Of a DNA stretch of 20,000 nt, positions 1,531 to 18,088 are shown in pieces. Positions within the stretch are counted from its first letter, which is position 1. Every line of letters starts with the position of its first letter. Both the position numbers and the translations under genes were made by a program. Origin of the DNA: an uncultured Methanosarcinales archaeon (GTDB lineage: Archaea; Nanobdellota; Nanobdellia; Woesearchaeales; BS150m-G63); contig CAZVVW010000004.1 in assembly GCA_964630685.1 (NCBI GenBank), forward strand, positions 53,454 to 73,453, written 5' to 3'. The notes below the pieces were generated by a model. The model was not told where the DNA came from. It searched no databases and was given only the letters and a program-made list of their open reading frames with translations.

Positions 1531-1648
1531 CACAATCAGGAAATAATGGCTGATTATTTCTGAAAGTAAGCAAAATTTTAGATTTTGCTCACAATCAGGA
1601 AATAATGGCTGATTATTTCTGAAAGTAAGCAAAATTTTAGATTTTGCT
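1531..1648. repeat. Exact 59-bp tandem duplication (1531-1589, 1590-1648), with a degenerate partial third copy at about 1504-1530
   Basis: cacaatcaggaaataatggctgattatttctgaaagtaagcaaaattttagattttgct occurs twice back to back. Upstream aagcaagtaaaatccttagatttcacc resembles the unit's 3' half. The second copy contains the topA stop codon. Confidence 0.95.
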
Positions 1649-3829
1649 TATATGTCGACATTTAGGATAGCCTGAGCACCCATAGAATTCTCCGTAAAAA
1701 GATTTTCTTAATACTAGTTCTTTGCCACATTTAGGGCACATTTTTTTCTCTTTTGTTTTTTTATCATCTTTTTTATCTGTTTTATTATTCCTATTTGTTT
1801 TAGAAACGCAATCAGGATTTATGCAAAGTTCTTGTGGCCTTTTTCCCTTTTTTATTACATTGACCATAGGGTAATTACATTCCTTGCATAGGTTTTCTGA
1901 ATTTTTGATTAATCCATTTGGAGGCAATTTAAAGGTGGTTTTACAATCAGGATATTTAGTACATGCAATGAATTTTCCAAATTTACCTCTTTTTATAGTC
2001 AGTTGCCCATTTTTACAAGTTGGACATTTACCTATGTGATTTGCTTTATCTTGAGTTTCTCTTGTAGCATCTATTAATCCTTCACCTATTTCTTTTTCTT
2101 TTTCTTTGAATTGTTTTAATATTTTTTTTAGAATCTCTTTAACTTCATCTAAGACTGTTTCTTTTTTCTTTTTATCTGAACGAATATGTTCCATTTCTTC
2201 TTCAAAATGCCTTGTTAATTTTTCATCTATTATTCCTGGAGAATATTTTTTTAATGTATCCACTGTCGCTAAACCGAGAGAAGTTGCTTCTATGGATTTT
2301 CCTTTAAGATAATTTCTTTGGAACAATTTATCCACTATATCTGCTCTTGTGGATTTTGTGCCTATATTTCTTTTTTCTAATTCTTTGATTATTGAAGATG
2401 GAGTATACCTCTTTGGTGGTTGAGTTTCTTTTGAGTGGATTTTTATTTTTTTTACAGATACACATTCTCCCTGATCCATTTGTGGAAGTTCTTCTTCTTT
2501 TAAGGATAAATAAGGTTGGTAAAAAGTGTGCCACCCAGGTTCTAAGGTAGTTATTCCTTTTGCAACAAAAATTTCTTGATTACAATCCACTTTTGCAGTT
2601 GTTAATTGTCTTTTGGCAATTGGTGCAAAGGTCGATAAAAATCGTTTTACAATCAAATCATATAATTTTTTAGCATGACTATCTTCCAGTTTTTTTGGAA
2701 TTATGCCTGTTGGATAAATAGCTGGATGGGCAGGATCTGATTTTTTACCTTCATTAGGTTTAAGTGTTTTTTTGAGGAGAGCGTCACATAATTCTTTGTA
2801 ATTTTTTTGTTTTGAAAGTTCTTTTATTATTTTGTCATACCCAATTCCTTTTGGTAATTTTTGAGAAGATGTTCTTGGGTAAGATATATAGGAATTTGTG
2901 TATAGATCTTGAGCTATTTGAAGTGTTTTTTTAGGGGGTATTCTTAAGCACCTATATGATTCTATTTGAAGTGTAGTGAGATCAAATGGAAAGGGAGGTA
3001 GTTGATTTTTTTCTTTCTTTTCTATGGATTTTATTGTTGCACTTTGATTTTTTGTTTGTTCGAGCACTTTGTTTGCTTTTTCTTTTTCCCAAAATTTGTC
3101 TTCGATATGCCATGCAATTAAGTTTCCTTGTTTTACATTTCCGTTCAATTCTATTTGCCAGAAAGGTGTTGGAATAAATGCCTTTATTTCCCTATCTCTA
3201 TCTGTTATTATTTTTAGTGATGGACCTTGTACCCTTCCTATGCTTAAAATTTTGAATGCTCCAGTTGCTTTGATTGAAGCAGTTAATGCCCTACTTAGAT
3301 TTATACCATACATCCAATCAAGAAAATGTCTGGTTTCTCCTGCATTTGCTTGCCCCCAATCTATATTGGGAGATTTGTTTTCATAAGCTTTTATTAAATC
3401 AGGTTTAGTTAATGTTGAAAATTTCATTCTGTTAGCATCTTTTTTTTGTAATGCGAATCTTACTATATTTAGGCCAATAACTTCCCCTTCAATATCATAA
3501 TCGCAAGCTATAGTGAATTCTGAAGCCCCTTTTGATAATTTTTTTAGATTAAGAAGATAATCTTTTGAATATTTTTGGGCTTTATTCATGGAAGCAGTAT
3601 CTACCCAATGCATATTGAATACAGGATAAGCCCATCCATTTTTTTCTTTTTCATCTACAGAATAAAGATGTCCTACCGCAGAAGCAACTATGATTTCTTT
3701 ATTATTGTGAGTTATTTTATAATAAGGAACTTTTCTTTTGTAGGTTTCTTTTTGGGGAGTTTTGTCTGCTAATGCAGTTGCAATCTTAAGTGCAGCACTT
3801 GGTTTTTCGCAAATTATTAGTTCATACAT
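1637..3829 (-). CDS. topA: DNA topoisomerase IA with three C-terminal zinc ribbons
   Basis: TOPRIM motifs (ICEKPS, GHL, ACDYDIEGEVIG), SIGRVQGP, catalytic ISYPRT, GTKSTR, and three C4 ribbons (CPTC..C..YPDC, CKEC..C.NPDC, CPKC..C..YPKC). ATG at 3829 (MYELIICEKP) preferred over the track's TTG at 3853. Confidence 0.96.
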   Translation of the reverse strand: MYELIICEKPSAALKIATALADKTPQKETYKRKVPYYKITHNNKEIIVASAVGHLYSVDEKEKNGWAYPVFNMHWVDTASMNKAQKYSKDYLLNLKKLSKGASEFTIACDYDIEGEVIGLNIVRFALQKKDANRMKFSTLTKPDLIKAYENKSPNIDWGQANAGETRHFLDWMYGINLSRALTASIKATGAFKILSIGRVQGPSLKIITDRDREIKAFIPTPFWQIELNGNVKQGNLIAWHIEDKFWEKEKANKVLEQTKNQSATIKSIEKKEKNQLPPFPFDLTTLQIESYRCLRIPPKKTLQIAQDLYTNSYISYPRTSSQKLPKGIGYDKIIKELSKQKNYKELCDALLKKTLKPNEGKKSDPAHPAIYPTGIIPKKLEDSHAKKLYDLIVKRFLSTFAPIAKRQLTTAKVDCNQEIFVAKGITTLEPGWHTFYQPYLSLKEEELPQMDQGECVSVKKIKIHSKETQPPKRYTPSSIIKELEKRNIGTKSTRADIVDKLFQRNYLKGKSIEATSLGLATVDTLKKYSPGIIDEKLTRHFEEEMEHIRSDKKKKETVLDEVKEILKKILKQFKEKEKEIGEGLIDATRETQDKANHIGKCPTCKNGQLTIKRGKFGKFIACTKYPDCKTTFKLPPNGLIKNSENLCKECNYPMVNVIKKGKRPQELCINPDCVSKTNRNNKTDKKDDKKTKEKKMCPKCGKELVLRKSFYGEFYGCSGYPKCRHISKI

Positions 3830-3878
3830 TTTTGAATTGGGTGAAGAAACCAAAAAAAGCGCTCATATAATAATGTTA

Positions 3879-5222
3879 CTATTCTTTGTTTTTCTTAGGT
3901 TTTGAGGGGTTTTCTTTTTGTTTTTTATGTTTTTTAGGTTTTTTATTGAGATAAATAGTTTTTCTAATAGTATAACTTACAGGGTTTTTTATTTTGTTAC
4001 ATAAATTGTCAGGATTACAAATTCCCAATTCTTTGTAATACAAATCATTGGAACAATTAGGTGGAAGGATTTTCTTTTTTTGTGCTTTATGATATCTTAA
4101 TTGTCCAACTGAATAAACTTCCCTCATTTCTTCAGGGTTGTTTTTGTTCCATTTTTTTAAAAGTTCTTCGATATCATCATAAGACCAACCTACACTAGTT
4201 AAGAAGTTTATAATGATAAACAAAAATCTTTTTTTCCCATCCTCTAAACCTTTTAATCCTTGGGTTATACAAGGTGGAAAGAATTGTTCTGGCATTTTTG
4301 TTTTAATCTCAAAGTGATCTTTGTTTTTTTCTTTTAATGAGGGGTGTTCTTCTTTTTTTACTTCAAAATCAAAGGATTGTACTATTAGTTTTTTTGCTTC
4401 ATTTTCTTTTGCATTCGAATCATCTAGAAATTTAAATTTTGAAATAGTTACATCTTTTGCTTTTGCATGTTCAAGTCTAAAATCAAGAACTTTGTCAGGA
4501 TTTAAGGGAATGCTTACTAGGCCACTTTTTTCATTGAAGGCATAGGGCATTCTGATCAAATGTCTACTCGATATTAAAATAGTATCCACTTCTAAAACTG
4601 TGAAAGGATCGAATTTATTTTCTTTTACTATTTCTTTGAAAGGTTTACCTGTTTTTTTAATTATTTCAGTTATGGTATTCAGTTTTAAAAGTTCTTTTGC
4701 TAAAGGTTTTTTGATCATTTCTTTTAGATATTCTGCTATTTTTCTTGGTCCTTCTGGAAAGAGGTATTTTGTTTCTTGTTGATGTATCTTTTTTGGAAAG
4801 GCTTTGAAAGGTACCGCAATGTGGAAACCAGAACCTCCTGAGAACTTACAAGAAACTGAATTTATTCCTTGGTATTTTAGGGCTTTGATTAATAGGTCTG
4901 TAGTTATTCTTCCATATTCTACAAATTTACAATCAATATCTAAAATGAGATCCCAACCAATTCTTAATTCATCTAATTCTTTCTTTTTTAGAGAAGGGCC
5001 TAGTCGCGCAGGATTTGACCAGAGTTCTTCTGACATGTGGAAAGAAGTTGCTCCACGTTTCGTTAGTTCTAATACATCTTGAGGGTAGCTTAGGGTGTCT
5101 GGTCTTGCACCAAATCCTTCACCGAATCTTGTGGCGATTTCTCTGTTTTTAGAATAATGAACTAATTCTTTTTGGATTTCTGGTCTTTTGTAATGAAGCA
5201 GTGCTGCGCTTAATGTTACCAT
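3879..5222 (-). CDS. priS-priL: Fused DNA primase: PriS catalytic domain plus PriL Fe-S C-terminal domain
   Basis: AEP motifs WDLILDID, FSGGSGFH and RMPY, followed by PriL-CTD motifs FFPPCI, PPNC and CNPDNLC..IKNP (four Cys). Confidence 0.9.
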   Translation of the reverse strand: MVTLSAALLHYKRPEIQKELVHYSKNREIATRFGEGFGARPDTLSYPQDVLELTKRGATSFHMSEELWSNPARLGPSLKKKELDELRIGWDLILDIDCKFVEYGRITTDLLIKALKYQGINSVSCKFSGGSGFHIAVPFKAFPKKIHQQETKYLFPEGPRKIAEYLKEMIKKPLAKELLKLNTITEIIKKTGKPFKEIVKENKFDPFTVLEVDTILISSRHLIRMPYAFNEKSGLVSIPLNPDKVLDFRLEHAKAKDVTISKFKFLDDSNAKENEAKKLIVQSFDFEVKKEEHPSLKEKNKDHFEIKTKMPEQFFPPCITQGLKGLEDGKKRFLFIIINFLTSVGWSYDDIEELLKKWNKNNPEEMREVYSVGQLRYHKAQKKKILPPNCSNDLYYKELGICNPDNLCNKIKNPVSYTIRKTIYLNKKPKKHKKQKENPSKPKKNKE

Positions 5223-5320
5223 TTTATTGATTGTAAGGTTAAGGGTTATATATCTTTTTTGTTAATTGAGAGTATATATAATTAGTTAGTTTTTTATATT
5301 ATTGAGGCGTTTACGTTTTT

Positions 5321-10867: not shown

Positions 10868-11806
10868 TTATTCTAATAATTCTACACTATCTATTCTTCC
10901 ATCTCCATCAAGATCAAATCCTTGAACAGCTACGGCAAAGGTTTTTTGGTCAGAGAATCTTTGAGTGATTAGTTTGTGGTGTCTTGTTAATGCAAGTACA
11001 GCTGCTTTTGTGCCAAGATACCTTATTCCTGCTAAAACTAATATCTTGTTTTCTGGGTTATAAGGGTTTGGAATTCTTGCTATGAATCCACAAGATTCAT
11101 CTGTGTATTGTTTTCTTGTTTTTTCTGAAATAATTCCATAAGGTTTTTTGTCTGAGAATTTTATTGGGAGCATATCATTTACTTTTGAAACAATAAGGTT
11201 TGTTATAGGCCCTCCGACAAGAATTAAATTATTTTTCTTTTTTGTAGCAATATCTACATCTAAAACCACGCTAAATTTTTTGGGAATTGAGCTATAGTGC
11301 CCAAGAAATAATGCTAAATCAATTGCATAATGTCCATCTCTCGCTCTTGCTTTTTGTGGGCCATGAGGATCTGGACTACCCACCACTATATTGCAATTGA
11401 GTTTGTTATTTTGTATGAATGGTTTGAGAAATTCTTTTAGTTCTTTATCTTTTTCTTCATGAATTAATTTGTCCATATCTTTCCAATTTTGGCTTAGGGA
11501 GATGACAAAATTCATCTCTTTTGGTTTGTATTTTTTTGCTACTGTCCCCCTTATTTCTTTTTTTTCAACTAGTTCGAGAATTCCCGAATTGAGAAGTTGT
11601 TTTATATGGTAGTATACTTTTTGTTCATGTAGTTTTAGTTTTTTAGCTAATTCTGCAGGATACATGGGTTTTTTCGCTAAAGTTTCTAGTATATTGATTC
11701 TTATTGGGTGGTCTATTAAACGCATTGCTGAAGGATTGTGAAATATGAAAGCAGAATCATATACTAATTGATTTTCTTTTTCTCTTATTAGATAATTTTT
11801 AGGCAT
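10868..11806 (-). CDS. ArsR-like winged-helix transcription regulator with a C-terminal alpha/beta domain
   Basis: HPIRINILETLAKKPMYPAELAKKL...QKVYYHIKQL..SG (wHTH). C-domain has IVVGSPDPHGP, NLILVGGPITN, AG...GTKAA and a terminal DLDGDGRID. Confidence 0.8.
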   Translation of the reverse strand: MPKNYLIREKENQLVYDSAFIFHNPSAMRLIDHPIRINILETLAKKPMYPAELAKKLKLHEQKVYYHIKQLLNSGILELVEKKEIRGTVAKKYKPKEMNFVISLSQNWKDMDKLIHEEKDKELKEFLKPFIQNNKLNCNIVVGSPDPHGPQKARARDGHYAIDLALFLGHYSSIPKKFSVVLDVDIATKKKNNLILVGGPITNLIVSKVNDMLPIKFSDKKPYGIISEKTRKQYTDESCGFIARIPNPYNPENKILVLAGIRYLGTKAAVLALTRHHKLITQRFSDQKTFAVAVQGFDLDGDGRIDSVELLE

Positions 11807-12076: not shown

Positions 12077-12775
12077 ATGGCAACTAAAATTGTGATAATG
12101 GCTGCAGGTAAGGGCACAAGAATGATGCCTTTAACGCAGTATGTTCCGAAGACTTTAATTAACGTAGGCGGAAAACCTTTCTTGTATTATGTTATGAAGA
12201 ATGTGTTGAAAGCAGGGTATACAGAGATAGGCATTGTTGTAGGTTATAAAAAAGATAAGATTCAAGAATTTCTTAAAGATTTTGGGTTTAAAGCAAAACT
12301 CATGGAGCAAAAGAAAAGACTTGGTACTGGGCACGCACTTAAACAAATTAAAGGGTTTATAGACGGAGAAGATTTTGTAGTGATTGGTGGAGATAATCTA
12401 TGGTCCACTAATGATTTGAAAGCTATGCGCGGAAAGAGTAAATTTTGTTATATTGCTGGCATGGAACACCCAAGTCCTGAAAAATACGGGGTGCTTCTTG
12501 AAGAAGAAGGTATGTTGAAAAAGATTGTTGAAAAACCAAAGAGTTTTGTTGGTAACTTGATTAATGTAGGGTTGTATAAATTTACTAATGATATTTTTGG
12601 GGCACTTGACAATATTAAGAAATCTGAAAGGGGAGAATATGAATTGACAGACGCAATTTCTTTATTGGCTTCTCAAGGAAAAGTAAAAGTGATGGAGCTT
12701 AAAGATTATTGGTTGGATTTAGGTTGTTTGGATGACATACCCTTGATTGAACAATTCTTGACTAAAAAGATATAG
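12077..12775 (+). CDS. Sugar-phosphate nucleotidyltransferase (GlmU N-domain/RmlA-like), lacking the acetyltransferase domain
   Basis: MAAGKGTRMMPLT...PKTL, LGTGHA, GDN, YGV, IVEKP, SERGEYELTDAI, WLDLG. Ends at 232 aa with no hexapeptide repeats. Confidence 0.9.
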   Translation: MATKIVIMAAGKGTRMMPLTQYVPKTLINVGGKPFLYYVMKNVLKAGYTEIGIVVGYKKDKIQEFLKDFGFKAKLMEQKKRLGTGHALKQIKGFIDGEDFVVIGGDNLWSTNDLKAMRGKSKFCYIAGMEHPSPEKYGVLLEEEGMLKKIVEKPKSFVGNLINVGLYKFTNDIFGALDNIKKSERGEYELTDAISLLASQGKVKVMELKDYWLDLGCLDDIPLIEQFLTKKI

Positions 12776-12779
12776 GAAA

Positions 12780-12860
12780 ATGAGTGGAATTTTTGGTTAC
12801 AAAGGCAAAAAGACTAGGTCTTTAAGCCGTTTAAGAGATTTTGTTGAGGAGATGATTTAA
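12780..12860 (+). CDS. 26-aa micro-ORF resembling the GlmS N-terminus (MSGIFGYKGKKTRSLSRLRDFVEEMI); functional peptide or gene remnant
   Basis: Manual translation. Starts 4 nt after the upstream TAG and its TAA ends 1 nt before the glmS ATG. 7 of the first 9 residues are identical to GlmS (MCGIFGYNG). Confidence 0.55.
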   Translation: MSGIFGYKGKKTRSLSRLRDFVEEMI

Positions 12861-12861
12861 T

Positions 12862-14658
12862 ATGTGTGGGATTTTTGGATATAACGGGACACAGAACTCT
12901 TTTTCTATAGTATTTAATGGACTTAAAGATCTTGAATACAGGGGTTATGACTCTTGGGGTGTTGCTTCTTTGATTGATGGAAATATTAATGTAATTAAAA
13001 AAACCGGAAGGATAGGTGAAGATTTTGGTGGAAAGGAGATTAAAAGTTGTGTTTCTATTGGCCATACTCGTTGGAGTACTCATGGTAAACCTTCTGATAA
13101 AAATGCACATCCACATCTTAGTTGTGATGGAAAGATAGCTGTTGTTCATAATGGGATTATTGAGAATCATGATAAAATTAGGGAAAGATTGAAAGGACAC
13201 AAATTCAAATCTGAGACAGATACAGAAGTGATTGCTCACTTAATAGAAGAATATATGAAGAAGTATGATTATAAAGAAGCGATTGTTAAAGCGCTTGGAG
13301 AATTAGAAGGAAGTTTTGCTTTAATGATATTGAATTCTGAAAGGGAAGATATTATTGCTGTAAGGAGGGGATCTCCATTAGTTATAGGGATTAAAGGGGA
13401 AGAGTTTTTTTTATCTTCTGATCTTTTGGCTTTGTTGAGACACACAAAAGAGATTGTTTTTGTGGAAGACGATGAAATGGTGATTTTTAATTCTGGTTTT
13501 AAAATGATTAATTTTGTTAGTGGCGAGATAGTGAATAGAAATCCAGAAGTCATGGATATTGATTTTAGTGAATCTGATAAAGGAGATTTTAGTCACTTTA
13601 TGCTTAAAGAGATATATGAACAGCCAAAAGCGATTGAAAAAACTATTTCTGGAGATGGTGGCGAAGGGGTTGTATTTCAGATTCCTGATGAAGTGTTTTC
13701 TAAATTGAATAGGGTTGTGATTGTTGCTTGTGGAACTAGTTGGCATGCAGGATTGGTTGGAGAATATTGGATAGAAAGGTTTGCTGGAATACCAGTTGAA
13801 GTAGAATATGCGTCTGAATTTAGGTACAGAAAACCAATTATTGATGAAAATGTTTTAATTATTGCTATAAGTCAAAGTGGAGAGACTGCTGATACACTCG
13901 CTGCTGTAAAAGAGGCTAAAAGTGGGGGTGCGTTTATTTTTTCAATTTGTAATGTTTTTGGAAGCACACTGACTCGACTTTCTGATTTAGTTGTTTATAC
14001 TCGGGCTGGTGCAGAAATAGGGGTAGCTTCTACTAAGGCTTTTACAACTCAATTGAGTGTACTTTATTTGCTTTCTTTGTTTTTTGGGCATAAAAAAGGG
14101 GATTTAGATGATGAGGAAGTGGAAAGGAGAATTGGGTTTTTGAAAGGGGTGCCTAAACAGATAGAAGATATTCTGAATAACGAAAAAAAGGTTAGAGAGA
14201 TTGCTGAAAATTATTATCTTGATAAAAATGCACTTTATTTAGGTAGGGGTTTGAATTTTCCAATTGCCTTGGAAGGTGCGCTGAAATTGAAAGAGGTTTC
14301 TTATATTCATGCTGAAGGATATCCTGCTGCAGAAATGAAGCATGGGCCTATTGCTTTGATTGATAAAGATATGCCTGTTGTGTTTATTGCTGCAAAAGAT
14401 AAAACTTATGAGAAAGTTATGGCAAATATTGAAGAAGTCAAATCAAGAAAAGGGAAGGTGATTGCTTTGGCTAGTGAAGGTGATTCTGTTGTTGCTGGAA
14501 AAGTAGATCATGTGTTATATATCCCTGAAGCAGATCATTTTATACTTCCTTTTTTGACTGTGATTCCTTTACAATTACTCGCTTATTATATTGCTGATTT
14601 AAGGGGGTGTGAAATCGATAAACCCCGTAATCTTGCGAAGAGTGTTACTGTTGAATAA
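12862..14658 (+). CDS. glmS: Glutamine-fructose-6-phosphate aminotransferase (isomerizing)
   Basis: MCGI, LEYRGYDS, GHTRW.THG, HNGIIEN, SETDTEV, ACGTSWHA, SQSGETADT, EGALKLKE, C-terminal PRNLAKSVTVE. SD-like GAGGAG at 12846-12851. Confidence 0.99.
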   Translation: MCGIFGYNGTQNSFSIVFNGLKDLEYRGYDSWGVASLIDGNINVIKKTGRIGEDFGGKEIKSCVSIGHTRWSTHGKPSDKNAHPHLSCDGKIAVVHNGIIENHDKIRERLKGHKFKSETDTEVIAHLIEEYMKKYDYKEAIVKALGELEGSFALMILNSEREDIIAVRRGSPLVIGIKGEEFFLSSDLLALLRHTKEIVFVEDDEMVIFNSGFKMINFVSGEIVNRNPEVMDIDFSESDKGDFSHFMLKEIYEQPKAIEKTISGDGGEGVVFQIPDEVFSKLNRVVIVACGTSWHAGLVGEYWIERFAGIPVEVEYASEFRYRKPIIDENVLIIAISQSGETADTLAAVKEAKSGGAFIFSICNVFGSTLTRLSDLVVYTRAGAEIGVASTKAFTTQLSVLYLLSLFFGHKKGDLDDEEVERRIGFLKGVPKQIEDILNNEKKVREIAENYYLDKNALYLGRGLNFPIALEGALKLKEVSYIHAEGYPAAEMKHGPIALIDKDMPVVFIAAKDKTYEKVMANIEEVKSRKGKVIALASEGDSVVAGKVDHVLYIPEADHFILPFLTVIPLQLLAYYIADLRGCEIDKPRNLAKSVTVE

Positions 14659-14659
14659 A

Positions 14660-15133
14660 ATGGAATTTAGAAAAGCTAACGAATTAGATAAAGAAATGAT
14701 TGGAGAAGTTTTGAGACAGTGTTATAATATTGATTCTGTTGAAGAGGGTGTTGGGGTTTTTATGGAAGAGGTTAGTAAAGGATATAATTTTATTGTTGCT
14801 GAAGAAGCAGGAAAGATAGTTGGTTTGACTAGCTGGACTGTACATGGTTTAGTGAAACATGGATTAGCTGAATTAGATAGGATTGCTGTGTTGTTTGAAT
14901 TTAGACAAAAAGGAGCTGGAAGAGGATTATTTAATTCTTTGATTGAAAATGCTAAAGAATTTTATTCTGTTGAAGGGGGGATGCTTCGGAAAGTGTATTT
15001 GATGACTCATGCAGATAATTTTAATGCTCAAGAATTTTATAATAAATTAGGGTTGAAAAGTGAGGCTAAATTAAAGGACCATTTTTATGATGGCAAAGAT
15101 GAATTAGTTATGTCAATATTTGTGGAGGATTGA
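14660..15133 (+). CDS. GNAT family N-acetyltransferase
   Basis: ELDRIAV...RQKGAGRGL (acetyl-CoA loop) and N..AQEFY.KLG. ATG at 14660, 1 nt after the glmS TAA, preferred over the track's 14609. Confidence 0.9.
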   Translation: MEFRKANELDKEMIGEVLRQCYNIDSVEEGVGVFMEEVSKGYNFIVAEEAGKIVGLTSWTVHGLVKHGLAELDRIAVLFEFRQKGAGRGLFNSLIENAKEFYSVEGGMLRKVYLMTHADNFNAQEFYNKLGLKSEAKLKDHFYDGKDELVMSIFVED

Positions 15134-15138
15134 TTATT

Positions 15139-16812
15139 ATGAAAATTAAGGCGGTTATTTTTGATTTGGATGATACATTGTTTGATTGTAGTGGAATTCT
15201 GGCAGAATCTGCTAGAAAGCGGGCTGCTAAAGCAATGGTTAAAGCTGGTTTGAAATGTAAGTGGGAAAAAGCATATAAGAAGATTAACGAGTTTAAGCGA
15301 AAAAAAGGACCTAAGACAGATGCTTTTCAAAAAGTTGTGGATAAATTCGGACCTAAAGATTATTCTATTGTAAAAGAAGCTATTAAATCATATAATAGTG
15401 AAGAAGGGATTGAAGGGATTGAGTTGTTTCCAGGGGTGAAAGAGACTCTTGCTGAATTGAGAGAAGATTATAAATTGATTTTGGTGACTAGTGGGACAAG
15501 GGTGCGTCAACAGAAAAAAATAGATATGCTTGGGCTGAACCATGATTTTGATTTAATAATTATTGATGAATTGGAAGAACAATTATCAAAAGAAGATAGG
15601 TTTTTAGCTGTTTTAAAGAATTTTAAATTAGTTCCTGAAGAGGTGCTTGTGGTTGGAGATAGAATATTCTCTGAAATTAAAATAGGAAATATTTTGGGAA
15701 TGACGACTGTGCAGATGTTGCATGGTGTTTATAGTGGATTAGTTCCTAAAAGAGGGGTAGAGGCTCCTGATTTTAGGATTACTAAGATTGCTGAATTAAT
15801 TAGAATTTTGGAAGAATTAGAAAATCATAAAGAGTTGAAGGTGGTTGTGATTGGTGGGGGAACTGGATTGCCTTCAATGCTGAAAGGGTTGAAGAAATAT
15901 ACTCGTGAATTGACTGCTGTTGTGGGGGTTACAGATTCTGGTAGAAGTTCTGGAATGCTTAGAAAAGATTTTGATATGGCTCCGCCTGGAGATATAAGAA
16001 ATTGTTTGGTTGCTTTGTCTGATGCTGAAAAACTGATGGGAGATTTATTTCAACACAGATTTATGAATGGTAGTTTAGAAGGGCATTCTTTTGGTAATTT
16101 GTTGATTACTGCGCTTACTCAGACCACTGGCAGTTATGAGAGAGCAATACATGAGGTTGGAGGAATTTTAAAGATAAAAGGTAGGGTGTTGCCTAGCTCT
16201 CACGAAAATGTACATATTTGTGCTGAATTTGAAGATGGAAATGTGATTAAAGAAGAAGATAATATTATTGATAGGCATAATCCTGATGTGCATTTGCGTC
16301 CTAGAATTAAAAAAGTGTTTCTGAGCAAAAAAGTCAAAGTTTGCGGTAGTGCTGTGAATGCTATTATGGATGCAGATATTGTGGTGATTGGTCCTGGAAG
16401 TTTGTTTACTAGTGTGATTACTAATTTACTTGTTAAAGGGATTCGTGATGCTGTTGTTAAGAGTAAAGCTAAGAAAGTTTATGTGTGTAATATAATGGCT
16501 CAACCTTCACAAACTTATGGATTTACATCATCTGAACATGTGGGGGAGATTGAGAAGTATTTAGGGAAAGGGGTTTTAGATTATATTATTTTGAATAATG
16601 AATTGCCCCCCAAGAAATTGTTGAGATTATATGAAAAAGATCATTCTCCTATGGTTGTGGTGGATAGGGTTGGATTGAAGAAATTCAAGGCTAAAAAGAT
16701 AGAGGCAAATATTGTTGAAGATGTTAAGGAGATAAAGGTTTTGTGGAACAAAAAGAATTTACTCAGGCATGATTCTGATAAGATTGCTAAGATAATTGTT
16801 GGGTTGGAATAG
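15139..16812 (+). CDS. yvcK: Fusion of a HAD-superfamily hydrolase (N-terminal about 230 aa) and a YvcK/GlmR (CofD/UPF0052 family) domain
   Basis: HAD motifs FDLDDT, LVTSG, K, VGDRIFSE..G...G. From about 15832: VVIGGGTG, DSGRSSG.LR, PPGDIRNCL, GHSFGNL, IGPGSLFTS, RHD. Single uninterrupted frame. SD GGAGG at 15124-15128 supports ATG 15139. Confidence 0.9.
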   Translation: MKIKAVIFDLDDTLFDCSGILAESARKRAAKAMVKAGLKCKWEKAYKKINEFKRKKGPKTDAFQKVVDKFGPKDYSIVKEAIKSYNSEEGIEGIELFPGVKETLAELREDYKLILVTSGTRVRQQKKIDMLGLNHDFDLIIIDELEEQLSKEDRFLAVLKNFKLVPEEVLVVGDRIFSEIKIGNILGMTTVQMLHGVYSGLVPKRGVEAPDFRITKIAELIRILEELENHKELKVVVIGGGTGLPSMLKGLKKYTRELTAVVGVTDSGRSSGMLRKDFDMAPPGDIRNCLVALSDAEKLMGDLFQHRFMNGSLEGHSFGNLLITALTQTTGSYERAIHEVGGILKIKGRVLPSSHENVHICAEFEDGNVIKEEDNIIDRHNPDVHLRPRIKKVFLSKKVKVCGSAVNAIMDADIVVIGPGSLFTSVITNLLVKGIRDAVVKSKAKKVYVCNIMAQPSQTYGFTSSEHVGEIEKYLGKGVLDYIILNNELPPKKLLRLYEKDHSPMVVVDRVGLKKFKAKKIEANIVEDVKEIKVLWNKKNLLRHDSDKIAKIIVGLE

Positions 16813-16844: not shown

Positions 16845-17909
16845 ATGAAGATTGAAATGTCTGCACTGGATTTGAAGTATATGGTTGAAGAATTGCAAGT
16901 GCTAGTTGGAGGAAGGGTTGATAAAATCTATCAAATTGGTAAGAGAGAATTCTTTTTTAGGTTTCATGTGCCAAATGAGGGTAAAAAAATTCTAAAGTTG
17001 TTTTTACCTAATTTGATGTATATTACAAAAAGGTTGGGAAGAATGCCTCAAACCCCCATGGGTTATTGTGCTTTTTTGAGAAAATATCTAGATAATGCGC
17101 GTGTTCGTGAAGTTAAACAGAAAGGGTTTGAAAGAATAATTGAATTTGTTTTTGAGAAAAAGGAAAAGTTCGTGTTGCTTGTTGAGATGTTTAGTAGCGG
17201 AAACATGATCTTGTGTAAAGAGAATTATACTATGTTGTCTCCTTTGGAAGGACAAGACTGGAGATGTAGGAGTATTAGAAAAGGGTTGAAATATGAATTT
17301 CCTCCTGAAAGGGAAGATATTTTTAAGTTGAACCTTGTGCGATTTAAAGAGATAATTGCTGGAAGTGAAAGAGATAATATTGTAAAGACATTAGCTGTTG
17401 ATTTTGGGCTTGGAGGAGTTTATGCTGAAGAGGTTTGTTTTGAGGTTATTGAGAAGGGGAAAAAAGAAGTCGGTGATAGTGAGATTAAGAAGTTGTTTAA
17501 ATCTTTAGATGGATTGCTTAGTCGTAAATTAAAGCCTGTGGTGTATAAAGGTCGTAGAGCGTTTCCTTTTGAATTGAAAAGTTTTGAAGGAGACTTTAAG
17601 GAATTTGAGAGTTTTAGTGGGGCTTTGGATTATGTTAATTTTGAGAAAAAAGTTGCCTTTAAGGATAAAGTTGATGTTATTATAGAAAAACAAGAGCAGA
17701 ATTTAGGGGTGCTTGAGAAAGAAATTGAAGAGAATGGAAAGATAGGTGATTTGATTTATAATAATTATGTTTTGGTTGCTGATGTGTTGAAACAGATTGA
17801 TTCTGCTAGAAAGGAATTAGGATGGAAAGAAGTGAAAGAGAAACTGAAAGGGCACAAAGTTGTTAAAGAGATAGATGAAGCTGAAGGGAAGGTTGTTATT
17901 GACATATGA
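16845..17909 (+). CDS. rqcH: NFACT/Rqc2 (RqcH) homologue, N-terminal half only (NFACT-N, HhH, first coiled coil)
   Basis: MSALDL....ELQ.L.G.RVDKIYQ, LRKYL, Q.GFERI, VEMFSSGNMIL, Y.FPP, GLGGVYAEEVC. Ends at 354 aa with no NFACT-R domain. TATA-like TTTTATATA about 25-30 nt upstream. Confidence 0.85.
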   Translation: MKIEMSALDLKYMVEELQVLVGGRVDKIYQIGKREFFFRFHVPNEGKKILKLFLPNLMYITKRLGRMPQTPMGYCAFLRKYLDNARVREVKQKGFERIIEFVFEKKEKFVLLVEMFSSGNMILCKENYTMLSPLEGQDWRCRSIRKGLKYEFPPEREDIFKLNLVRFKEIIAGSERDNIVKTLAVDFGLGGVYAEEVCFEVIEKGKKEVGDSEIKKLFKSLDGLLSRKLKPVVYKGRRAFPFELKSFEGDFKEFESFSGALDYVNFEKKVAFKDKVDVIIEKQEQNLGVLEKEIEENGKIGDLIYNNYVLVADVLKQIDSARKELGWKEVKEKLKGHKVVKEIDEAEGKVVIDI

Positions 17910-17947: not shown

Positions 17948-17955
17948 AAAAAAAA
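17948..17955 (-). terminator. T8 terminator after the 5S rRNA
   Basis: A8 on the plus strand equals T8 on the minus strand, immediately 3' of the 5S helix I. Confidence 0.65.
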
Positions 17956-17956
17956 G

Positions 17957-18068
17957 TGGACAGCTTTCTGGGTTTCCCATACAAAGTATAGTACACCCCA
18001 AAACGTGTGCTTGCTTAACTTCTGAGATCGAGACGGGATCAGGTGAACCAAGCAGCTATGACCGTCCA
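17957..18068 (-). rRNA. rrf: 5S ribosomal RNA (stand-alone)
   Basis: Minus strand reads TGGACGGTCATAGC...CACCTGATCCCGTCTCGATCTCAGAAGTTAAGC...GTGTACT...GGGAAA...GCTGTCCA: archaeal 5S signature (GGYCAUAGC, loop C, GAAGUUAAGC, loop E) with complementary ends. Ends accurate to about 3 nt. Confidence 0.95.
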
Positions 18069-18088
18069 TAGAGAAGGATTTTTGATGG

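Follow-up and report, generated by a model that had tools for sequence, protein, structure and literature searches.

Proteins of the YvcK/GlmR family are essential or linked to virulence in Firmicutes and mycobacteria, and one account places GlmR "in some archaea" and states that little is known of it beyond Gram-positive bacteria (PMC13046274). Their chemical role is disputed: in the accessible text of the papers concerned, GlmR appears either as an activator of GlmS (PMC7525490) or as an accessory uridyltransferase (PMC10128056), and this published uridyltransferase activity was missing from the first-pass annotation of the DNA considered here. That DNA, the window, is a 20,000-nucleotide stretch of an uncultured archaeon (assembly GCA_964630685.1, contig CAZVVW010000004.1, positions 53,454 to 73,453, forward strand), and the gene under study (15139..16812, + strand) encodes a 557-aa fusion of a HAD phosphatase domain to a YvcK domain. 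Judged from its profile scores and predicted fold, the protein is a YvcK with a new architecture, loop and context. It resembles YvcK, GlmR, CuvA and YbhK (2hzb, 2o2z, 2ppv, 2q7x) in its common fold, its score above the family cut-off, its equivalents of D38/D40, N198, Y265 and R301, and its link to UDP-N-acetylglucosamine (UDP-GlcNAc) synthesis. Unlike them, it is fused to a HAD, has Ser, Ala or Thr for the second Asp and Arg for a loop Gly, and lies in a glm operon instead of the rapZ-yvcK-whiA context. Comparative data point more to the phosphoglucosamine mutase (GlmM) step than to other readings of the fusion, and we give a probability of roughly 0.4 to the proposal that the YvcK and HAD pair performs or primes the conversion of sugar 6-phosphate to 1-phosphate, as do MupP and AmgK. 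The MupP–AmgK–MurU pathway of Pseudomonas dispenses with a mutase: an amino-sugar 6-phosphate becomes a UDP-sugar through a phosphatase of the HAD superfamily, then a kinase acting on the anomeric carbon and a uridylyltransferase like GlmU (PMC5371407). The likeness proposed for HAD, YvcK and nucleotidyltransferase would be one of pathway logic only, since the archaeal set includes no AmgK homologue, the kinase role is only proposed for YvcK, and the substrate would be glucosamine or GlcNAc (GlcN(Ac)) rather than MurNAc.

The fusion gene is a single stop-free frame, and its AlphaFold model has a pLDDT of 93.5. By Pfam and NCBIfam, the HAD-IA (C1-cap) phosphatase domain spans residues 1 to about 229 (15139..15825, +) and the YvcK/GlmR (UPF0052) domain runs from about 231–235 to 555–557 (15826..16812, +). 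As annotated, the frame contains DLDDT (D9, D11; 15163-15177), GDRIFSE (G173–E179; 15655-15675) and DSGRSSG (D266–G272; 15934-15954); the HAD domain further carries T117, and the YvcK domain a GGGTG loop together with N429, Y498 and R543. Among the best 120 of 7904 matches, both a HAD Pfam domain and PF01933 were found in 118 of the 119 best homologues, the remaining one being a partial protein. The 118 share 46–90% identity with the window protein, and the source names, where given, were Nanoarchaeota, Woesearchaeota, Diapherotrites, Aenigmatarchaeota, Planctomycetota and Brocadiia. A same-genus genome holds an unbroken, 90% identical copy, and a 90% identical protein is encoded in a Candidatus Woesearchaeota archaeon record (L031), from which we take the window to stem from a DPANN archaeon (GTDB phylum Nanobdellota). 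A sequencing artefact joining two genes, which the annotation had named as one threat to its reading, is thus ruled out, and the HAD–YvcK fusion is confirmed as a real, conserved architecture. It had not been recognized as characterized, and literature searches, whose coverage did not extend to the supplements of DPANN genome surveys, where such genes might be listed, found no paper describing it.

CofD is an archaeal phosphotransferase that is paired with the nucleotidyltransferase CofC, and CofD/FbiA (TIGR01819; 3c3d, 3c3e, 6uw1) shares the superfamily fold of the C-terminal domain of the fusion. The domain nevertheless scored 341.7 bits with the YvcK profile TIGR01826 (cut-off 196) and 39.4 bits with that of CofD (cut-off 257.45). 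In structure comparisons, the predicted model matched BH3568 (2hzb) with a VIA Z of 44.7 and a root-mean-square deviation (rmsd) of 1.4 Å over 309 residues at 44% identity (Foldseek TM 0.96); its match to CofD/FbiA had a Z of 23–24, an rmsd of 3.2–3.8 Å and 16–20% identity. No F420 genes were found among the neighbours scanned. The profile for CofD-like proteins of the GAK system (TIGR04357) gave 124.2 bits against a cut-off of 340, and the GAK sequence was an outlier in the tree. Membership of the CofD/F420 or GAK groups was therefore ruled out by the sub-cut-off scores and a CofD Z about half that of YvcK, and the domain groups with YvcK, as had been predicted.

In the available text on Listeria GlmR, the catalytic residues are D40, D41 and N198, assayed as multiple mutants only (PMC10128056), and the UDP-GlcNAc site of the B. 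subtilis protein comprises Y265 and R301 (PMC7525490). Alignment with the Listeria and Priestia YvcK sequences equated D266 with D40, S267 with D41, R269 with G43, N429 with N198, Y498 with Y267 and R543 with R303. Y498 and R543, equivalents of the UDP-GlcNAc site, were kept in 116 and 117 of the 120 aligned sequences; the Y265/R301 numbering is that of B. subtilis, and the alignment was made to Priestia megaterium (Y267/R303) and BH3568. Retention of this pair agrees with the amino-sugar ligand expected of the domain. Two of the three residues of the predicted catalytic triad are present (D266, N429), with S267 in place of D41; position 267 is Ser in 97 of the 120, Ala in 11 and Thr in 10, and E. 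coli YbhK likewise has no second catalytic Asp. D266, G268, R269, S270, G272 and R275 were invariant in all 120, giving a family-wide pattern of D[S/A/T]GRS[S/T]G. The Arg of this loop was considered as a marker of HAD coupling, but it proved to be a trait of one clade and is missing from many YvcK proteins linked to a HAD, so the idea was dropped. A predicted complex of GlmS with the YvcK domain scored 0.00 against a mark of 0.32, with controls that were not folded, and was used neither for nor against binding.

HADs of subfamily IA carry DxDxT, S/T, K/R and GDxxxxD/E motifs and a C1 cap, with Asp or Glu usual in motif IV. Across the 120 aligned sequences, D9, D11 and T13 were kept in 119, T/S117 in 119, K/R151 in 91, and G173, D174 and E179 in all. 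The Glu of motif IV, to which attention had been drawn, is therefore present but not a peculiarity of this protein. The domain matched PF13419 with 75.5 bits (cut-off 23.8), and a helical cap is seen in the model. Its best HAD model was TIGR02253 (PH1655-type; 121.7 bits), and its closest relatives were of the PH1655 (2hoq, E 6.5e-23), NANP and YfnB types, with Z values of 21–22 for the predicted structure. All catalytic motifs of the PH1655/TIGR02253 group and NANP, its best sequence and structure matches, are present; unlike them, the window HAD is fused and falls below the TIGR02253 cut-off of 169.75, and cap-less versions occur. Scores for beta-phosphoglucomutase (beta-PGM; 21.8 bits, cut-off 189.4), PpaX (57.4, cut-off 218) and MupP (21.7, cut-off 359) were all below their cut-offs. 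The PpaX value bears on the idea that YvcK is an accessory uridyltransferase whose reaction is pulled by a fused PpaX-like pyrophosphatase destroying pyrophosphate. In its favour, uridyltransfer by GlmR is published (PMC10128056, available text), the window's own genome gave no match to a soluble pyrophosphatase (family I or DHHA2), HADs are also fused to GlmU, and there is a weak PpaX match (57 bits). That match is, however, far below its cut-off, the nearest relatives are PH1655, NANP and YfnB types, a soluble enzyme would compete with the membrane H+-pyrophosphatase that the genome encodes (G000:C3:9744-11648), and the mutase pattern described below would be left unexplained, so that we consider this idea very unlikely.

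Gene order on the + strand of the window is nucleotidyltransferase, glmS, GNAT, fusion and a piece of rqcH. The sugar-1-phosphate nucleotidyltransferase (12077..12775, 232 aa, PF00483) corresponds to the N-terminal half of archaeal GlmU without its beta-helix (TIGR03992, 215 bits over profile positions 2-215 of 393, below cut-off); glmS (12862..14658, 598 aa) encodes a glutamine-fructose-6-phosphate transaminase (TIGR01135, 788 bits, cut-off 418), and the GNAT acetyltransferase (14660..15133) has 157 aa (PF00583). Because gaps of 1 nt and 5 nt join glmS, GNAT and fusion, a single transcript is likely, as far as spacing can indicate. The fusion had been placed in one operon with glmS, and the same-strand run with tiny gaps agrees with this, but glmS is not adjacent, the GNAT gene lying between. 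The GNAT protein is probably the glucosamine-phosphate N-acetyltransferase, because the nearby nucleotidyltransferase is without a beta-helix and the window's own genome gave no match to a hexapeptide repeat. Its orthologues stand beside glmS or the fusion at six other loci (L143, L147, L033, L245, L246, L290), and in P0018 one is fused. They form a conserved DPANN group that accompanies glmS, in most cases with a nucleotidyltransferase that has no beta-helix; L290 has both.

To place the fusion among its relatives, 401 genomes of the window's phylum were sampled, together with 251 of a second phylum, that of G428, to which an Aenigmatarchaeota record had led. All are drafts in which the lack of a match is no proof of gene absence; one, G002, is unpublished, counts as a single genome where relevant and carries no conclusion. 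Searching with a profile built from 115 fusions gave matches in 95 of the 401 (3 HAD-only) and 46 of the 251 (7 HAD-only), and after removal of HAD-only matches the YvcK domain was present in about 92 and 39 genomes, respectively. YvcK, annotated as mainly bacterial, is thus not rare in these archaea. We read 83 yvcK loci in the window's phylum and 30 in the second, counting as neighbours those same-strand genes that lay no more than 2.5 kb away or were fused to yvcK. A HAD accompanied yvcK at 38/83 and 20/30 loci (58/113), a nucleotidyltransferase at 33/83 and 21/30, glmS at 13/83 and 16/30 (29/113), and a mutase at 1/83 and 6/30. Either glmS, the nucleotidyltransferase or a mutase was near yvcK at 62 of the 113 DPANN loci, so that the amino-sugar linkage noted for the window is general in DPANN, and a HAD occurred together with one of these genes at 32/83 and 19/30 loci (51/113). 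Of 74 canonical bacterial-type yvcK loci from metagenomes, none had a HAD and 4 had any glm gene; the queries were archaeal, and flanks of 1.4 kb at either end were available for just 34. The steadier partners of yvcK are thus the HAD and the nucleotidyltransferase rather than glmS.

The partners are joined in many ways. HADs of the DLDDT type or of the DLEDV, YihX-like type precede YvcK, and a cap-less HAD (L256) or one of the DADHT type (L240) follows it. YvcK–GlmU–HAD single chains have 902–933 aa (L153, L154, L155, L157; one adjoins glmS), and further fusions are HAD–YvcK–GNAT (P0018), GlmU–HAD (L285, L290) and mutase–HAD (L289); separate yvcK, HAD and nucleotidyltransferase genes also occur in a row. 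Fusion to YvcK, at one end or the other, thus involves at least three HAD subtypes, and a fourth is adjacent but unfused. A single clade of HAD-fused YvcK was rejected by the approximately unbiased test (p-AU 2.4e-5; 23 of 49 rows), a result indicating, at the level of the sequence tree, more than one origin of the fusion. DPANN YvcK and the Planctomycetota fusions split from canonical bacterial YvcK with an SH-aLRT of 99 (73 rows, quick tree). The Planctomycetota fusions nest beside an Aenigmatarchaeota sequence; their grouping with canonical bacterial YvcK was not rejected (p-AU 0.075), and transfer from archaea is therefore only one reading of the tree. Scanning contigs with the single protein gave two loci, a metagenome scan four fusion loci, and a viral-collection scan no full fusion. 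At the two GC-rich loci, the neighbours encoded an FHA protein and PAP2 (L034) or a GNAT of another kind (L035). A divergent YvcK domain does occur in a 783-aa protein from one contig of the viral collection (L169:558-2906). In YvcK proteins of family f59 (L158–L162), a hydrophobic N-terminal extension of about 110–145 aa replaces the HAD, and no glm neighbours were seen. Two genes from HAD–YvcK in L149, an 894-aa fusion of UDP-glucose dehydrogenase and a eukaryote-type UDPGP uridylyltransferase was observed (1532-4213).

GlmM-type mutases and yvcK were not found together in the genomes compared. A mutase lay within 3.5 kb of glmS in 15 of 36 yvcK-less, glmS-bearing genomes (8 family codes, read by hand), and these 15 mutases formed one clade (support 1.00, 88 rows). 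GlmM (TIGR01455) was the best model in all six that were tested and above cut-off in four. PF01933 was absent from the matches of all 43 control genomes, including the 15 with a glmS-adjacent mutase, and the 68 mutases of 67 yvcK-bearing genomes (67 fetched of 76 with a mutase match) included none that scored as GlmM-type; the best GlmM-type score among them was 253 bits, against at least 610 for clade members, which trained the profile, and the mutases of G382, G191 and G151 were too divergent to class. Within family f73, G097 has glmS-glmM without yvcK, and G146 and G377 have glmS-yvcK. Seven second-phylum genomes with glmS-[HAD-YvcK]-glmU gave no mutase match, nor did 24 of 31 yvcK-bearing genomes of family f62, in which glmS was present in 13 of 18 tested. 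Among 76 genomes with both glmS and yvcK, a HAD was linked to yvcK in 22 of the 23 mutase-less and 25 of the 53 mutase-bearing ones (Fisher p 3e-5, inflated by kinship). Plain enrichment of mutase loss in yvcK-bearing, glmS-bearing genomes of the window's phylum was set aside as weak (14/45 vs 8/36).

This pattern could also arise if the HAD itself were the amino-sugar phosphomutase and YvcK merely regulated it. The HAD superfamily includes beta-PGM and alpha-PMM, and the window's type has kept its DxD motif and C1 cap. A HAD accompanies yvcK in those 22 of 23 mutase-less genomes, and beta-PGM-family HADs adjoin glmS in L255 and L260. A HAD mutase needs the cap and second Asp, however, and many partner HADs have no cap or no second Asp (DLEDV type); the beta-PGM score of the window protein is 21.8 bits against a cut-off of 189, and the HAD mutases of this cap class known to us act on beta-anomers, GlmU requiring the alpha-1-phosphate. 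We find this alternative barely plausible.

We favour instead a DPANN module of YvcK, HAD and sugar-1-phosphate nucleotidyltransferase, of which the fusion would be one form, acting between GlmS and the nucleotidyltransferase to replace or support GlmM. We infer its catalytic steps from the domains, motifs, neighbourhoods and GlmM exclusion observed. GlmS, by family, would make glucosamine-6-phosphate (GlcN-6P), which the GNAT protein would acetylate; HAD–YvcK would shift the phosphate from C6 to C1, and the nucleotidyltransferase, whose family is clear and whose substrate is presumed, would form UDP-GlcNAc. In the favoured chemistry, the HAD would strip the 6-phosphate and YvcK would phosphorylate the anomeric carbon from a nucleoside di- or triphosphate by a CofD-like phosphoryl transfer, in either order. 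In the CofD reaction, an alcohol receives a phosphoryl unit from a nucleoside diphosphate compound, so anomeric phosphotransfer would be chemically within reach of the fold. Dephosphorylation followed by anomeric phosphorylation would account for the interchange of unrelated, broad HADs and, used for salvage, for the survival of the yvcK-HAD-nucleotidyltransferase trio without glmS. The reverse order would proceed through a 1,6-bisphosphate that could also prime a general phosphomannomutase/phosphoglucomutase (PMM/PGM), and would explain the operons that keep one. Feedback could act through UDP-GlcNAc bound at the kept Tyr/Arg site. The fusions HAD–YvcK, YvcK–GlmU–HAD and HAD–YvcK–GNAT, with the displacement against GlmM, would name the 6-phosphate to 1-phosphate step, and the question of GlmR chemistry is reduced to a short list of substrates assayable with commercial compounds. 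If correct, the proposal adds a route to a central cell-envelope pathway and explains how mutase-less DPANN make UDP-GlcNAc; if false, there is still an uncharacterized archaeal GlmR lineage with an obligate-looking phosphatase partner.

Extended to the family, the proposal would make YvcK/GlmR proteins sugar anomeric phosphotransferases with CofD-type chemistry which, with a HAD, form GlcN(Ac)-1P independently of GlmM, starting from GlcN(Ac)-6P or from salvaged GlcNAc, or prime phosphohexomutases with 1,6-bisphosphate. We regard this broader claim as doubtful. If true, about a fifth of the sampled DPANN genomes, and also Planctomycetota, would have a new branch of UDP-GlcNAc synthesis. The accessible text on B. 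subtilis genetics describes the physiological activator of GlmM as unresolved and reports that GlmM overcomes the synthetic lethality of glmR pgcA, which neither GlmS nor GlmU does (PMC6797236). The rescue by GlmM alone fits a mutase-step role, and bacterial GlmR genetics would be reinterpreted, with GlmM's activator supplied.

Several observations weigh against our proposal. The co-occurrence of HAD and nucleotidyltransferase with yvcK where GlmM is absent is what a mutase bypass would predict, but a kin-corrected mutase–HAD test on the YvcK tree was not significant (six independent pairs; 1.8 changing the same way, 0.1 the other, 4.1 unchanged; median p 0.5). The window's own genome has a general PMM/PGM on another contig, and at 39 of the 83 yvcK loci of its phylum both a HAD and glm genes are missing from the vicinity. 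In seven genomes (G191, G500, G650, G662, G618, G557, G479), one operon contains the module as well as a general PMM/PGM, and those of G500 and G650 hold a complete glmS-GNAT-mutase-nucleotidyltransferase pathway plus the fusion. The G500 PMM/PGM (L245:5269-5967 to 3826-5256) reads PSAND in place of the usual SHN catalytic loop pattern and is possibly degenerate. Ten genomes, among them G474 and G435, have glmS with no match to a mutase or YvcK, 13 further yvcK-less glmS genomes have no adjacent GlmM (5 with only other mutases, 8 not fetched), and four f62 genomes of the control set are also without a mutase match. None of 15 yvcK-less second-phylum genomes tested has a GlmM-type mutase, so the exclusion of GlmM and yvcK is informative in the window's phylum only, where block inheritance of two operon lineages could also produce it. 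Since HADs are also fused to a mutase (L289) and to GlmU (L285, L290), they may serve the operon and not YvcK. In the available text of the bacterial studies, the single glmR mutant is suppressed by overproduced GlmM, GlmS or GlmU (PMC6171935), and the authors interpret GlmR as a GlmS activator (PMC6797236, PMC6171935). The activities reported are uridyltransfer and GlmS stimulation (PMC10128056, PMC7525490), with no report of a kinase or phosphotransferase found.

These bacterial activities suggest a homeostat of the GlmR type, in which YvcK would sense UDP-GlcNAc and stimulate GlmS or add uridyltransfer when the pool is low, and the HAD would drain or proofread amino-sugar phosphates when it is high; this corresponds to the gated phosphatase suggested in the annotation. 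Y498 and R543 match the UDP-GlcNAc-binding pair, D266 and N429 match Listeria D40 and N198, and both GlmS stimulation and uridyltransfer are published (PMC7525490, PMC10128056; available text). A drain would suit interchangeable, broad HAD subtypes, and a GlmS booster would be useful where a general PMM/PGM is the sole mutase. The linkage of glmS, within 2.5 kb of yvcK at 29 of 113 loci, is part of the same case, as is its presence in 30/30 yvcK-bearing vs 62/80 yvcK-less genomes of the second phylum. In the window's phylum, however, glmS was similarly frequent with and without yvcK (45/80 vs 37/80, one of the yvcK-less genomes, G166, later revealing a divergent yvcK), and 35 of the 80 yvcK-bearing genomes gave no glmS match. 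Several of these keep yvcK-HAD-nucleotidyltransferase or a GlmU fusion; thus four fusion genomes (G029, G104, G111, G361), 94–100% complete, have the nucleotidyltransferase beside or within the fusion. The glmS linkage, offered initially as support for a GlmR-like role, therefore stands as an amino-sugar link but is not specific evidence for GlmS stimulation. Ser, Ala or Thr takes the place of the second catalytic Asp in the numbers given above, a uridyltransferase would be redundant beside, or fused to, an intact nucleotidyltransferase, the 23 glmS-bearing genomes without any mutase would be left unexplained, and the available text reports no GlmR–GlmS binding in Listeria (PMC10128056). We consider such a homeostat, the main rival of our proposal, possible, if tentative.

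The apparently complete operons of G500 and G650, in which the fusion looks surplus, would suit a role downstream of UDP-GlcNAc, the two-step transferase-phosphatase of the annotation: a phosphorylated acceptor would receive GlcNAc-1-phosphate (with release of UMP) or GlcNAc from YvcK and then lose its own phosphate to the HAD. Parallels exist in CofC/CofD, where CofD releases GMP, and in IPCT-DIPPS plus a phosphatase. The predicted CofD-like fold (Z 23–24 to CofD/FbiA) is compatible with this role, the added R269, invariant in all 120, could hold the acceptor phosphate, and cap-less HADs of about 160 aa suit a bulky substrate. Yet the neighbours scanned included no conserved gene for making an acceptor or handling a product, the Arg is missing from most DPANN YvcK that are still HAD-linked, and the absence of GlmM would be left unexplained; we judge this role unlikely.

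The remaining features of the window lie around the operon. An ArsR-type helix-turn-helix protein with an S_layer_C-like domain (10868..11806, − strand) is encoded divergently from glm operons, whether or not these include yvcK, in the two DPANN phyla studied; it is a candidate ligand-sensing operon regulator. Just before glmS, an 82-nt unit (12780-12860, +) carries the glmS ribosome-binding site and codes for a peptide of 26 aa that resembles the beginning of GlmS over its first nine residues; the unit is single in the window and present as three tandem copies in the same-genus genome G001 (L143 4719-4964), and may be either a leader peptide or a duplication scar. A promoter scan with a bacterial consensus was at chance level. 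The fusion's neighbours being GNAT and rqcH, the rapZ(yvcJ)-yvcK-whiA context is absent, and RapZ (PF03668) had no match in the window's own genome (96.6% complete). The RqcH/NFACT N-terminal piece (16845..17909, +) matches profile positions 1-376 of 645 only; a 353–380 aa form recurs in relatives, often adjoining the glm operon, which suggests either a truncated or a split ribosome-rescue factor. A 5S rRNA gene (17955..18069, −; RF00001, 66.6 bits) lies isolated, with rqcH on one side and on the other a second nucleotidyltransferase/GT4 cluster (18178 onward). Far from the operon, a 447-aa open reading frame (3879..5222, −) joins small and large primase subunit domains in one chain, a fused primase of the kind known from DPANN. 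Among the compared loci, glmS and eRF1 genes carry LAGLIDADG inteins (L285:7747-11001 and L147:8528-10909).

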